64,000 bases of DNA from a virus (IMGVR_UViG_2877251553_000001:10207-74206); one strand, 5' to 3'; positions 38,595 to 53,485 are shown, counted from the stretch's first letter. The notes: generated from the sequence alone by a model not told the origin. Numbers and translations: made by a program.

Positions 38595-38616
38595 ATGGGG
38601 GTACTTATGGGGGTAT
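38595..38616 (+). repeat. 22-bp element ATGGGGGTACTTATGGGGGTAT, left copy of an inverted pair
   Basis: About 20 of 22 positions match the reverse complement of 53464-53485; lies about 30 bp upstream of the integrase start. Confidence 0.5.
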
Positions 38617-38647
38617 TTGCTGTTCGGTTTAGTGGAGGTACCCCCAA

Positions 38648-39862
38648 GTGAAACTCAATGCCCGTCAAATAGACACAGCCAAGCCAAAAGAGAAGGCTTA
38701 CAAGCTGGCCGATGGTGGCGGTTTGTATCTCTTGGTAAAACCTAATGGAGGTAAATACTGGCGACTTAAATATCGTGTAGCTGGTAAAGAGAAGCTATTG
38801 GCACTAGGTGTGTATCCTGAGGTTACTCTAGCCGATGCTCGGGCAAAACGTGAAGATGCGAAAAGAGGTATCGCTGGTGGTATCGATCCGATGGAAGCGA
38901 AACGAGAGGAAAAGATTGCCCGGGAAACGCAGTTAAACAACACCTTCAAAGATATTGCCCTTGAGTGGCACAGCAGCAAATTAAAAAAATGGTCTGCTGG
39001 TTATGCTTCAGACATCCTCGAAGCCTTCAACAAAGATGTGTTCCCTTACATTGGCAAAAAACCAATCGCCGAAATCAAACCACTTGAACTTCTGAATGTG
39101 CTGCGGCGCATCGAGGGGCGCGGTGCTACAGAAAAAGCCAAAAAAGTGAGGCAGCGGTGCGGGGAAGTTTTCCGCTATGCAATAGTCACTGGTCGCGCAG
39201 AGTATAACCCTGCACCAGACCTTACTAGCGCGATGCAAGGCCATGAATCTAATCATTACCCTTTCCTTACAGCTAAAGAATTACCTGATTTTTTCAAGGC
39301 ATTGTCCAGTTACTCAGGAAGCGCATTGGTTGTTATGGCGGCTCGTCTACTGATTATCATCGGCTTGCGGACTGGCGAACTACGTGGCGCATTATGGGAT
39401 GAAATTGATTTCAACAAGGCTATCTGGGAGATACCCGCTTCACGTATGAAAATGCGGCGGCCTCATATTGTGCCATTGTCTGATCAGGCTCTTTCGCTTA
39501 TTGGGAAGATTAGAGAAATAACAGGCAATTACCCTCTTATGTTTCCCGGGCGCAATGATCCAAGGAAAACAATGAGTGAGGCCAGCATAAACCAAGTGTT
39601 TAAGCGCATTGGCTACGCTGGACGTGTAACTGGTCATGGGTTCCGGCACACTATGAGCACGATTTTGCATGAGCAGGGCTATAACACCGCGTGGATAGAA
39701 ACGCAGCTCGCTCACGTTGATAAGAACTCAATTCGTGGCACATACAACCATGCGCAATATCTGGATGGAAGGCGGGAGATGCTTCAATGGTATGCCGACT
39801 ATATGGATGCGCTGGAGAAGGAGGAGAACGTTGTTCATGGTTCGTTTGGGAAACGAGCTTAA
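38648..39862 (+). CDS. Tyrosine integrase, P4-like
   Basis: 404 aa with C-terminal HGFRHT, LAH and RGxY catalytic motifs; adjacent to tRNA fragment. Confidence 0.85.
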   Translation: MKLNARQIDTAKPKEKAYKLADGGGLYLLVKPNGGKYWRLKYRVAGKEKLLALGVYPEVTLADARAKREDAKRGIAGGIDPMEAKREEKIARETQLNNTFKDIALEWHSSKLKKWSAGYASDILEAFNKDVFPYIGKKPIAEIKPLELLNVLRRIEGRGATEKAKKVRQRCGEVFRYAIVTGRAEYNPAPDLTSAMQGHESNHYPFLTAKELPDFFKALSSYSGSALVVMAARLLIIIGLRTGELRGALWDEIDFNKAIWEIPASRMKMRRPHIVPLSDQALSLIGKIREITGNYPLMFPGRNDPRKTMSEASINQVFKRIGYAGRVTGHGFRHTMSTILHEQGYNTAWIETQLAHVDKNSIRGTYNHAQYLDGRREMLQWYADYMDALEKEENVVHGSFGKRA

Positions 39863-39925
39863 CTGTATGAATAGACCGTGTTAAGCAATGGTAGTAGACT
39901 TATGTAGACGAACAAAGAATAGGCT

Positions 39926-40276
39926 ATGTCTAGGCTGATCCCGAAAACCCGTACACCCCTACGGGCTGGCATAGCCGTCAGAATTAGGGGCGCGGGGTGG
40001 CGTATGGTGAGAGCCAAAAAACAAGATTTAGCATGGTTTGATATTAGTAATTATGAATTTTTAAATGATTTAACCTTGCCGGACTTGATTCAAGAATTAG
40101 AGTGGCGCGATTTTTTATTGCGTCATGCAAAAGATGACACTGCTATATTCAAAGAAGAGTACGATATAAAATATGAAAGGATTTTTTCGGGCGATCCTAA
40201 CCTAACCATTCTCAATGAAGAAGAGGAAGAGGTCGAAGAATTTATTCGCAAAGTAAATGATGAAGCCCATCATTAA
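39926..40276 (+). CDS. Hypothetical protein with acidic C-terminus
   Basis: ORF in AT-rich DNA just downstream of integrase; start uncertain. Confidence 0.35.
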   Translation: MSRLIPKTRTPLRAGIAVRIRGAGWRMVRAKKQDLAWFDISNYEFLNDLTLPDLIQELEWRDFLLRHAKDDTAIFKEEYDIKYERIFSGDPNLTILNEEEEEVEEFIRKVNDEAHH

Positions 40277-40349
40277 GAAATGAGTACGATGATCTACCCT
40301 CATTATCTTCAGCTATGGGGTTAGTCCAGTAACATTTTCAGAGCTGGCC

Positions 40350-40691
40350 ATGTACTCTTTCTCATCGATAGATCAAGGCTTTTTTAAAAGAGACGAAGAG
40401 GATTGCTACCTCAAGGCAAACGCTATGCTTGCGAGTGTTACTGGAAACCTAAGTAATTGTTCCCCTAACATCATACTCGTTTCTATAGATTTAGATGACG
40501 CCACTGATGACGAAATTATTACCAGCCTGACTCACCTTCTACCTCTATGGCGAAAAGAGTTAAAAGTACCAGAGAGAGAGCATGTCGCTCAGAAAAGGAT
40601 TGGATTAAAGACCCTTCAGAAGTTGATATCTAATAGAGTGATACCTATTGTTGATCTGCTGATTTGGGTGAGAAGTCAGGTAAGGAAGTGA
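40350..40691 (+). CDS. Hypothetical protein
   Basis: 113-aa ORF, AT-rich; overlaps next ORF. Confidence 0.35.
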   Translation: MYSFSSIDQGFFKRDEEDCYLKANAMLASVTGNLSNCSPNIILVSIDLDDATDDEIITSLTHLLPLWRKELKVPEREHVAQKRIGLKTLQKLISNRVIPIVDLLIWVRSQVRK

Positions 40692-40882
40692 GCAATCCGA
40701 TGATTTCTGCCTTGGTTTTTAGTGATGATCCGAAAGATACGCAGGCTATTAAGGAATCAATAAAGCCTTTTGCACTTGAATCTATAAGCGAGAGATACAC
40801 CCGCTTGCTTCAGCTTTATGTAAACAAAGACAGAGAAATGAGCTTGATAAAAATATCTGATTTAATGAGTAGAGATTTATAG
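40664..40882 (+). CDS. Hypothetical small protein
   Basis: 72-aa ORF overlapping previous ORF in another frame. Confidence 0.3.
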   Translation: MGEKSGKEVSNPMISALVFSDDPKDTQAIKESIKPFALESISERYTRLLQLYVNKDREMSLIKISDLMSRDL

Positions 40883-41079
40883 CAAGCAAAATCCTACGTA
40901 AACGTTTTAAGTAAATTTCGCGATTTCCGCTTTGAATACGCTACTGTGTATTTCAAAGCGGATAATCTTCTCAAAAAAATATTTTATTTTTATCCGCTAT
41001 CACCCATTCACCGGTTTGTTTAATCTCCTTTCTGTCTACTGATGTCCATTAAAGAAGATGACAGAATATAGGAGTAAAC

Positions 41080-51950: not shown

Positions 51951-51992
51951 GTTCACAGATAAAACACTCTCCAGGAAACCCGGGGCGGTTCA

Positions 51993-52270
51993 GACATCAA
52001 GAGCGCGGTAGCCTTTTTTAATATTTCATTCTCCATTTCAATGCGTTGTAGCTTTTTCCTCAGCTTACGTATTTCGATTTGTTCTGGTGTTATCGGAGAG
52101 GCTTTTGGTGTTTTGCCCTGACGCTCATCACGCAGTTGTTTGACCCATCCTGTCATTGTGGAAAGGCCAACATCCATAGCTTTGGCGGCATCTGCCACCG
52201 TGTATTTCTGGTCAACAACCAGTTGAGCGGATTCGCGTTTAAACTCTGCGCTAAAATTTCTTTTTTTCAT
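51993..52270 (-). CDS. IS911 OrfA (copy 2), 3' end truncated by IS629
   Basis: [12 protein letters not shown] start; diverges exactly at the IS629 junction. Confidence 0.7.
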
Positions 52271-52342
52271 TGGAGCACCTGTGTTGTTCTGAGGTGAGCA
52301 TATCACCTCTGTTCAGGTGGCCAAATTCAGTGTGCCACTTCA

Positions 52343-52858
52343 GAACCAGACGTTCGCTCCTACAGCACCAAATCAGGTCTGGGTGGCGGACCTGACGTAT
52401 GTTGCCACACAGGAGGGATGGTTGTACCTCGCTGGCATCAAAGATGTTTATACGTGCGAAATTGTCGGCTACGCCATGGGAGAGCGCATGACAAAAGAGC
52501 TGACAGGTAAAGCCCTGTTTATGGCGCTCAGGAGCCAGCGCCCACCTGCCGGGCTAATCCACCACTCTGATCGAGGTTCACAGTACTGCGCATACGATTA
52601 CCGGGTCATACAGGAGCAGTCTGGTCTGAAAACATCAATGTCGCGTAAAGGTAACTGTTACGACAACGCTCCGATGGAAAGCTTCTGGGGAACGCTGAAA
52701 AATGAGAGCCTGAGCCACTATCGTTTTAATAACCGGGATGAAGCCATCTCAGTAATACGGGAATACATTGAGATTTTCTACAATCGTCAGCGTCGTCACT
52801 CTCGTCTGGGGAATATCTCCCGGCAGCCTTCAGGGAAAAATATCATCAGATGGCTGCT
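52343..52858 (+). pseudogene. IS3-family transposase OrfB fragment, 5' truncated by IS911
   Basis: DDE-type sequence starting at the IS911 boundary; C-terminus frameshifted at a C run. Confidence 0.6.
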
Positions 52859-52929
52859 TAAAAAAAGAACAAATGGTAGTGTCCGCTATTGCCAGTACAC
52901 CTCACCGGGTGGCATGGATAAACCCGGAA

Positions 52930-53376
52930 GAGAGTAAATCAAACCGCGCAATTGGCGTTGCGCTGAATGATACTGCATGTCGCGTATTGAAAAAACAAAT
53001 CGGGAATCATCACCGTTGGGTATTTGTGTATAAGGAAAGCTGTACCAAACCAGACGGAACGAAAGCGCCAACAGTCAGGAAGATGCGGTATGACGCAAAC
53101 ACAGCCTGGAAAGCGGCGCTGAGACGAGCAGGTATTGATGATTTCAGATTTCACGACTTGAGACACACCTGGGCAAGTTGGCTGGTTCAAGCCGGAGTCC
53201 CGTTATCAGTGTTACAGGAAATGGGAGGCTGGGAGTCTATCGAAATGGTTCGTCGATATGCTCACCTCGCACCTAATCACCTTACCGAACACGCACGGCA
53301 AATAGACTCGATTCTGAACCCATCGGTCCCAAATTTGTCCCAGTCAAGAAATAAGGAACGTACTAATGATGTGTAA
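52930..53376 (+). pseudogene. Tyrosine integrase C-terminal fragment (phage Int / Xer type)
   Basis: Catalytic HDLRHT and RYAHL motifs present; no N-terminal domain; start approximate. Confidence 0.6.
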
Positions 53377-53463
53377 CTTATTGATTTAAATGGATAATAG
53401 GAACAATACACATAGGCGATAAGCTTTGTTTTTGTTGCCTTTTTTATTGTTCATTTTTTATAG

Positions 53464-53485
53464 ATACCCCCAAAAGTACCCCCAT
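53464..53485 (-). repeat. 22-bp element, right copy of the inverted pair with 38595-38616
   Basis: Reverse complement reads ATGGGGGTACTTTTGGGGGTAT; about 85 bp downstream of the integrase fragment. Confidence 0.5.

Follow-up and report, generated by a model that had tools for sequence, protein, structure and literature searches.

The viral sequence IMGVR_UViG_2877251553_000001:10207-74206, hereafter the window, is 64,000 nucleotides (nt) long and carries two copies of a 22-bp repeat, about 14.9 kb apart, around an intact gene for a P4-family tyrosine integrase (int). The left copy, ATGGGGGTACTTATGGGGGTAT, occupies positions 38595-38616 of the + strand, and 31 nt separate its end from the GTG start codon of int at 38648. 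The right copy, ATGGGGGTACTTTTGGGGGTAT, occupies 53464-53485 on the - strand, differs from the left one by a single mismatch, and begins 88 nt past the stop (53376) of a truncated second integrase open reading frame (ORF). No other match to the 22-mer was found in the 64 kb at up to three mismatches, and 100 shuffles of the sequence gave an expectation of 0. An earlier sequence-only reading had described an inverted repeat pair, each copy next to an integrase gene, and had proposed that the repeats are integrase arm-type binding sites or the termini of a larger element since invaded by insertion sequences (IS). Both copies are present at the coordinates that it gave, and their number exceeds what chance would provide.

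The int gene (38648-39862, + strand) encodes a 404-amino acid (aa) protein that aligns over its full length with P4 Int (42% identity, E=3e-115), as the earlier description of the left integrase as P4-like had it. Pfam recognizes three domains, Arm-DNA-bind_3 (PF13356, 1.3e-28), Phage_int_M (PF22022) and Phage_integrase (PF00589). Residues 2-99 match the N-terminal domain chains of PDB entries 3ju0 and 3jtz, which we take to be the arm-binding domains of the HAI7 and HPI integrases. The identity to P4 Int is unevenly distributed, the first 60 residues being 68% identical and the remainder 39%. In the IntSXT/P4 group, arm binding is the role of this N-terminal domain, DUF4102 (PMC8138268). The second integrase is of the SfII/P22 type and unrelated to the first by BLASTP, so the two do come from different families. 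Downstream of int, at 41080-41277 (+ strand), a 65-aa helix-turn-helix protein of the AlpA/Vis family is encoded (Pfam Phage_AlpA, 9e-19). It is 39% identical to P4 ORF88, 'excisionase and transcriptional regulator', and is a candidate excision factor and regulator of int.

Two 12-bp units in tandem make up each 22-mer. The left pair, which we call P'1 and P'2 (ATGGGGGTACTT and ATGGGGGTATTT, 38595-38618, + strand), matches in position and number the 'attP arm sequence repeat' annotated at 3965-3942 in P4. The right pair, P1 and P2 (ATGGGGGTACTT and TTGGGGGTATCT, 53462-53485), lies on the - strand. A fifth unit, P'3, is inverted: TTGGGGGTACCT is read on the - strand at 38636-38647, with TACCCCCA at 38639-38646, and this unit shares bases with the GGAGG Shine-Dalgarno sequence and directly adjoins the int start codon. 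P4 likewise has an annotated arm repeat, GTGCCCCCAAATG, at the start of its int gene, and the P'3-type arrangement recurs in three other loci (L019, L039 and L042). The half-site TGGGGGTA is present seven times in the window where 1.5 copies are expected, and five of the seven are these att sites.

Upstream of the P' arm, positions 38437-38482 (+ strand) hold the 3' 46 nt of the tRNA-Thr gene thrW without its 5' half. The fragment is identical to the thrW 3' end in an Escherichia coli O111 locus (L001), by alignment to which it was recognized, and it matches the core of phage SfII, so that it represents an Sf/P22-type core copy. ARAGORN found no whole tRNA in the 64-kb window. The last bases of the fragment serve at the same time as attL core of the P4-like element, a 19-bp crossover core TCCTATTATCGGCACCATT at 38466-38484 (+ strand), delimited as the block common to attL and attR of intact relatives and to the attP of a viral contig described below; the form common to these elements is TCCTATTATCG(G)CACCATT. 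A distance of 110 nt separates this core from the P' arm pair. At the other end, a search of the window for 14 nt or more from the 3' end of thrW, one substitution being tolerated, returned no attR core, because the core copy there carries deletions and is also inverted. Alignment with the O111 and SWHEFF_68 loci revealed it as the degenerate sequence AATGG----ATAATAGGA at 53389-53402 on the - strand, 4 nt shorter than in relatives and 5 nt shorter than thrW; the attL core is intact. The remnant is 61 nt from P1/P2 (60 nt where relatives have kept the core intact). Counted from the P-arm pair, the tRNA CCA would begin at +74, as it does in SWHEFF_68. In several Enterobacterales (L010, L022 and L058, as against L013 and L063) the sequence at attR is TATCGCACCATT, which lacks one G of the TATCGGCACCATT of thrW, and attL keeps the tRNA sequence. 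This difference suggests that strands are exchanged to the right of that position, within the 7 bp CACCATT.

The P' arm contains in addition two 19-nt direct repeats, CTACTAAAGTCYYTCAAAA, at 38502-38520 and 38565-38583 (+ strand), which are 63 bp apart. Secondary repeat pairs are found at similar spacing elsewhere (65 bp in L039, 63 bp in L023), and (A/T)GTCC motifs recur together with repeat pairs 63-65 bp apart in several distant attL loci. These repeats may be candidate sites for the AlpA/Vis-like excision factor, for a host bending protein or for another accessory protein.

An intact form of the element, 19.7 kb long, adjoins thrW in E. coli SWHEFF_68 (L004/L005). From its tRNA-proximal end it encodes int (with the same product as in O111), a DUF6387 gene, an alpA-like gene, a hypothetical gene and antA, followed by a DUF4222 gene, ash, a TOPRIM/DUF927 primase and genes for P22-like ejection proteins. 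The distal genes are perC, a small ORF, a pRiA4b-ORF3 gene and a 119-aa ORF, beyond which come the second 22-mer, a thrW-derived core copy, an integrase fragment and yagU. A P4-type primase and an AlpA/Vis regulator are thus both carried by intact relatives, and core copies occur at both junctions in SWHEFF_68 and in O111. The two 22-mers of SWHEFF_68 are on the same strand, as direct repeats at the two ends of the element. The copies seen in the window are inverted, as the sequence-only reading said, but their native orientation is direct.

This orientation bears on the possibility that a large transposon-like element, with an integrase at either boundary, has the pair as its terminal inverted repeats. 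The window copies, inverted, 14.9 kb apart and each adjoining an integrase ORF, give that impression. However, the copies are direct in the intact relative and joined across a tRNA-derived core in the attP form, and they lie 61 and 110 nt inside the junctions and not at the extreme ends. Moreover, the second integrase, a remnant of SfII type, falls outside the element; in O111 (L001) its place is taken by an HNH endonuclease gene that adjoins the right-hand repeat. The inverted segments of the window are bounded by IS copies. We consider a transposon of this kind very improbable. What stands of the earlier idea of termini is that the repeats mark the att ends of a single IS-invaded integrative element; termini of the transposon type they are not.

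The attP form is provided by an IMG/VR contig (L084) whose int is 99.5% identical to that of the window. Its order is P-arm 22-mer, 60 nt, core, 110 nt, P' 22-mer, inverted unit and int, with the 22-mers direct and no tRNA gene. It joins coordinates 17777-19916 of the intact element to 276-2685 through the core. L084 is, to judge from its sequence, the attP configuration, with the P and P' arms contiguous through the core; its junction may also come from a tandem array of the element. Among viral loci with the double-tandem pattern, a P4-like int is present in 13 of 13 and lies directly downstream in 12.

Taken together, these data make it highly probable that the 22-mers are paired arm-type sites of a P4-family tyrosine integrase, belonging to one attP of about 265 bp, in a satellite prophage inserted at the 3' end of thrW. 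The arm-type binding sites suggested by the sequence-only reading are the best explanation of the repeats, given the layout of P4, the att regions of related integrases and the co-variation described below. The native order would be thrW, the 19-bp core, the 110-nt P' arm, two tandem 12-bp sites, the inverted site and int, then about 19 kb of cargo, the two tandem 12-bp sites of the P arm, 60 nt and the core copy. The N-terminal Arm-DNA-bind_3 domain of Int would bind the five 12-bp sites and the catalytic domain the core. By bridging arm sites and core, Int would assemble the complex that integrates or excises the element, probably assisted by the AlpA/Vis-like protein and host bending proteins acting through the other repeats and the AT-rich spacers. 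Int bound to P'1-P'3, over the ribosome-binding site and promoter region of int, would also repress int, as is reported for P4, where both Int and Vis do so (PMC2951348).

The regulatory position of P'3 also allows for the repeats being operators through which another regulator of the element, for example the AlpA/Vis-like protein, controls int, and not arm sites of Int. An AlpA/Vis homologue is among the products of the element, one unit extends over the int ribosome-binding site, and in P4 Vis down-regulates int as well (PMC2951348). However, the far arm bears the same tandem pair at a constant distance from the core, in a place with no gene to control, and the geometry of the pair relative to the tRNA core is kept across lineages. 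The arm-binding domain is the most conserved part of Int among elements that share the motif. In addition, the P4-type integrase IntS of ICEMlSymR7A needs all five P/arm motifs (TGKTGGTATC) of its 283-bp attP for integration, and attP together with intS suffices for that reaction (PMC11963761). An operator function in place of arm-site function is therefore improbable.

The distribution of the 22-mer was determined in a one-genome-per-species collection, allowing two degenerate positions. The exact 22-mer is found at 66 loci (L006-L071), where by our estimate about 0.3 would be expected by chance. The hosts are Enterobacterales, Aeromonas, Legionella, Neisseriaceae, Alphaproteobacteria, Betaproteobacteria, Desulfobacterota, Bdellovibrionales/Bdellovibrionota, Nitrospirota, Acidobacteria and Bacteroidota; some are metagenome bins, and the taxonomy of a few may be unreliable. 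Eight of the 66 are attL-type loci, with an inverted unit at +42 to +57. The start of a P4-like int is at +52 to +53 in five of these and further downstream in the other three. In five of the eight, a complete tRNA (Thr, Leu, Gly or Arg) was predicted with its end 112-157 nt upstream. The P-arm-type loci, 55 of which are long enough to judge, mostly show an AT-rich spacer and then a fragment of a tRNA T-loop and acceptor. A CCA starts at +68 to +78 in 39 of the 55 (mode +72 to +73), compared to 17% of control positions. The tandem geometry, with CCA some 72-74 nt on, thus recurs across lineages in which the surroundings and the tRNA target differ. This pattern ties the 22-mer to P4-type att sites, as opposed to a scattered distribution. 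The sequence-only reading had named a motif frequent without integrase association as what would speak against it; the genome-wide outcome favours arm sites.

To see how the motif varies with the protein, we used 45 distinct regions upstream of int (viral contigs L087-L166), chosen by protein similarity of the integrases and not by motif. Two tandem units and one inverted unit at the start codon are present with a GGGGG-type motif in about 29-30 of the 45, and by inspection the rest are arranged likewise. The motif falls into classes by clade, GGGGGTA, GGGGGCA, GGGGGCC/T, TGTGTATA and GTTGGTAT, and within each element the inverted unit bears the same variant as the direct units. In attP-form loci all five units have one common 3' flank (TAAC, TATC or TACA). 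Such joint switching is what one would expect if a single protein reads the sites and evolves along with them. Among elements with GGGGGTA or GGGGGCA, the first 60 residues of Int are 58-69% identical versus 37-47% for the remainder. Perhaps, and we put this forward tentatively, the arm-site 'code' of the P4 integrase clade is under tighter constraint than is commonly realized.

No description of how broad and how rigid the GGGGGTA arm code and its geometry are was found in the searchable literature, and they may well be known to specialists. If undescribed, the code would offer a sequence-only signature for both ends of P4-clade islands and satellites, and a natural data set on the specificity of the DUF4102 arm-binding domain. 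In any case, where a tandem GGGGGTA pair stands at its fixed spacing from the 3' fragment of a tRNA, it is a practical marker of the attR end of P4-clade islands, an end that is usually hard to find by annotation.

Several points weigh against assigning the repeats to an Int-bound attachment site. Five of the loci (L067, L007, L013, L020 and L044) have no recognizable tRNA-like core at the expected distance. In the window itself the att system is non-functional as a unit, the attR core being partly deleted and inverted. Binding of Int to the five sites is something that we infer from homology, architecture and co-variation. Finally, a simple scan of 38400-38700 gave no consensus sigma-70 promoter or terminator, so the autoregulation of int proposed above is drawn from analogy and from the overlap with the ribosome-binding site.

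The inverted orientation of the repeats was accounted for by mapping the window onto the coordinates of the intact SWHEFF_68 element. Segment A (38437-41615, + strand) is in native orientation and 99.6% identical to 247-3428 of the intact element. It contains the core, the P' arm, int, a DUF6387 pseudogene, the alpA-like gene and the start of the next ORF; the DUF6387 gene (39926-40691) is split into two ORFs of 116 and 113 aa versus a single 293-aa protein in relatives. An IS block follows at 41616-46890, made up of ISSso6 (IS110 family), an IS66-family element and IS911, identified from the names annotated under the matches and from their ORFs. Segment B (46891-49791, - strand) is inverted, with 99.0% identity to 6312-3413 of the intact element reversed, and carries antA/antB, ash and small ORFs (Pfam AntA and Phage_ASH); copies of IS911 in opposite orientation flank it. 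A second IS block (49792-52904) consists of IS911 interrupted by an IS1203-like element of the IS3 family, and a fragment of an IS3-family transposase. Segment C (53374-56118, - strand) is likewise inverted and 99.7% identical to 19927-17178 of the intact element reversed. It holds the core, the P arm, the 119-aa ORF, the pRiA4b-ORF3-family gene (Pfam PRiA4_ORF3, and the annotation of L001 and L005), a small ORF, the perC-like gene and a further ORF. Segment C is bounded by the IS3-family fragment on one side and on the other by an IS66-family element (56189-58520, + strand) with TnpA/B/C-like ORFs. About 11 kb of the intact element (6313-17177), including the TOPRIM/DUF927 primase, is absent from the window, and the AlpA-like gene is kept. 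Among the genes deleted in the window is a group at 4858-9516 of the SWHEFF_68 locus L005, annotated as P22-like DNA ejection/injection proteins, with a DUF2824 gene. Ejection genes of this kind are not the usual cargo of satellites that have an int and a primase of P4 type.

The 22-mers thus read as inverted because IS-mediated rearrangements inverted the attR end in place. E. coli O111 strains (L001, E. coli O111:NM 08-4377, 10256-14100) carry an independently rearranged copy in which the distal end is also inverted, with breakpoints that differ from those of the window and with an intact core. There, IS1203 and a dcm/HNH-endonuclease module separate the two parts of the element, and the yagU-ecp region between element and ykgL was not seen in the L001 locus. 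Two inverted distal ends, and att sites that face each other beside an intact int, might be taken for a segment that Int itself inverts, a site-specific switch. However, the inverted block extends past the core, taking in the Sf-type int fragment in the window and the dcm and HNH genes in O111, and the breakpoints coincide with IS elements. Their location away from the recombination site argues against Int-driven inversion, and the attR core of the window is moreover 4-5 nt short in the presumed overlap region. We regard such a switch as having very little probability. With its attR core damaged and inverted, the window copy would be unable to excise. The system of the window is, on present reading of its sequence, a relic in which int and the P' arm are intact and excision by attL x attR appears lost. 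It is a remnant immobilized in place, an intact int with its arm sites and no usable attR.

A related satellite occupies another chromosomal site, adjoining dinD in E. coli NT1F10 (L002). Its distal genes are shared with the window only from 53559 onward, the common part being the end module of the 119-aa ORF, pRiA4b-ORF3 and perC. At 3880-3930 it has a different end region with GTGGGTACAC and GTGTACAC-like repeats, and its sequence is unrelated where the window has arm and core. As the match starts at 53559, the arm-plus-core module travels with the integrase type, which suggests that satellites may exchange whole att/int modules.

The truncated integrase next to the right 22-mer was traced to a different element. 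Positions 52905-53393 (+ strand) contain the C-terminal ~157 codons of an integrase of the SfII/P22 family together with a 17-bp int-side attP arm, and are 98.4% identical to nucleotides 1500-1988 of SfII. The identity runs from within int through the 17 bp before the attP core and ends at 53393, at the core. The protein is 98.7% identical to Int of SfI, SfII and SfIV and 86.5% identical to P22 Int, and only the Phage_integrase domain is recognized by Pfam. It lies beyond the attR core, outside the P4-like element. Being only 88 nt downstream of its stop, the right 22-mer could in principle be an arm site of this integrase. However, no TGGGGGTA-like site occurs in the xis-int-attP-gtrA region of SfII, also when one mismatch is accepted, and SfII identity stops before the repeat. 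The repeat instead accompanies the P4-like module where the Sf-type fragment is reduced or absent, and an SfII-type arm site is exceedingly improbable. The adjacency of each repeat to an integrase is therefore present as the sequence-only reading noted, and nothing functional connects the right copy with the truncated gene. Its position reflects the use of the same tRNA site by several elements.

On the left side, 38315-38436 (+ strand), also outside the P4-like element, is the gtr-side arm of an SfII-type attP, and constitutes the attR arm of an upstream P22-Int-type prophage; the left part of the window is occupied by the late genes of this prophage. Together with the 46-bp core (38315-38482) it is 96.6% identical to SfII 2153-1980. 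Two halves of an SfII-type attP, 38315-38482 and 52905-53393, thus flank the scrambled element. Insertion of the P4-like element into an unintegrated SfII attP was considered, as both halves flank it, and is likewise compatible with the 64 kb. Successive integration events at thrW account for these observations through known biology, however, and the simplest history that we infer is that an Sf-type phage, then the P4-like satellite and then another P22-Int-type prophage integrated there in turn. The locus would thus combine three layers of thrW-targeted integration, an SfII-type remnant, the P4-like satellite and the end of a second Sf/P22-Int-type prophage.

Other features of the left part were observed in passing. 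Between the prophage tail-fibre genes and the Sf-type attR, which is the position of the gtr genes in serotype-converting phages, 34050-36773 contains a DNA cytosine methyltransferase-like ORF (504 aa, with an apparently altered C-terminus) and a convergent ORF that looks like a restriction enzyme (404 aa). A tail-fibre-like ORF at 27542-29959 has a long low-complexity stretch rich in Ala, Ser and Thr. The interval 28001-29000 has a GC content of 0.61 and an AT skew of 0.395, and long overlapping ORFs in other frames occur there as a by-product.

Arm-type sites of heterobivalent integrases have been textbook knowledge since lambda and P4. The repeats of the window are real but ordinary, a further instance of a long-known feature, and the terms 'inverted' and 'each by an integrase' reflect rearrangement and coincidence. 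In lambda, the heterobivalent Int uses arm sites P1, P2 and P'1-3, split two and three round the core, to form the recombination complex (PMC2951348). The element of the window differs from lambda in sequence, in the subfamily of the arm-binding domain and in the position of int relative to attP, and the lambda arm sites do not overlap the int start. In KplE1 (IntS/TorI), the int promoter region overlaps attL, so that Int and the excision factor repress int (PMC2951348). KplE1 has a TAAA-containing arm consensus and an integrase of another clade, and the likeness is confined to regulatory logic.

The P4-type system of ICEMlSymR7A is closer. In it, intS follows attL immediately on the downstream side, and proteins bound at that site influence the expression of the gene (PMC11963761). 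The GTTGGTAT-type motif of the ICEMlSymR7A kind is also found in three relatives of the window Int (L156, L162 and L166). Unlike the element of the window, ICEMlSymR7A is conjugative, has a distant gene for its recombination directionality factor (rdfS), and uses another motif class and tRNA target.

The closest comparison is with P4 itself. The P4 record NC_001609 annotates five 'attP arm sequence repeat' units around a 20-bp core. The arm repeats of P4 were reportedly first described by Pierson and Kahn in J Mol Biol in 1987. Read in the direction of int, P4 has the tandem ..TGGGGGCAC AAAAGGGGGCAT.., about 70 nt to the core CACCA, 111 nt, the tandem ATTGGGGGCATA ATTGGGGGCATC and, taking in the int start, an inverted GTGCCCCCAAATG. 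Both elements therefore have five 12-bp repeats, alike in number, tandem pairing, orientation and spacing, and a core at a tRNA 3' end that ends in CACCA. The distance from the far-arm pair to CCA is about +72 in P4 and +74 in the intact relative. By our own reading of the P4 sequence, where the automatic repeat search did not rank it, a pair of CCGAGnnnGTCC repeats occupies the same place in the P' arm as the secondary repeats of the window, with the same 63-bp spacing. The two also share, besides 42% identical integrases, an AlpA/Vis-type partner. The differences are a single base in the motif, TGGGGGCA in P4 versus TGGGGGTA here (GGGGGCA versus GGGGGTA), and the target, a tRNA-Leu gene in P4 versus thrW. 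The cargo is also unlike that of P4, the intact relatives carrying antA, ash, the DUF927 primase and the P22-like ejection-protein genes; sid/psu/delta-like genes and a cos site are not annotated in the intact relative, and no search aimed at them was made. Unlike P4, the window copy is rearranged and predicted to be unable to excise. The layout of its attachment site is nevertheless the same as that of P4, and the repeats of the window are thus an instance of the feature annotated in the P4 record.

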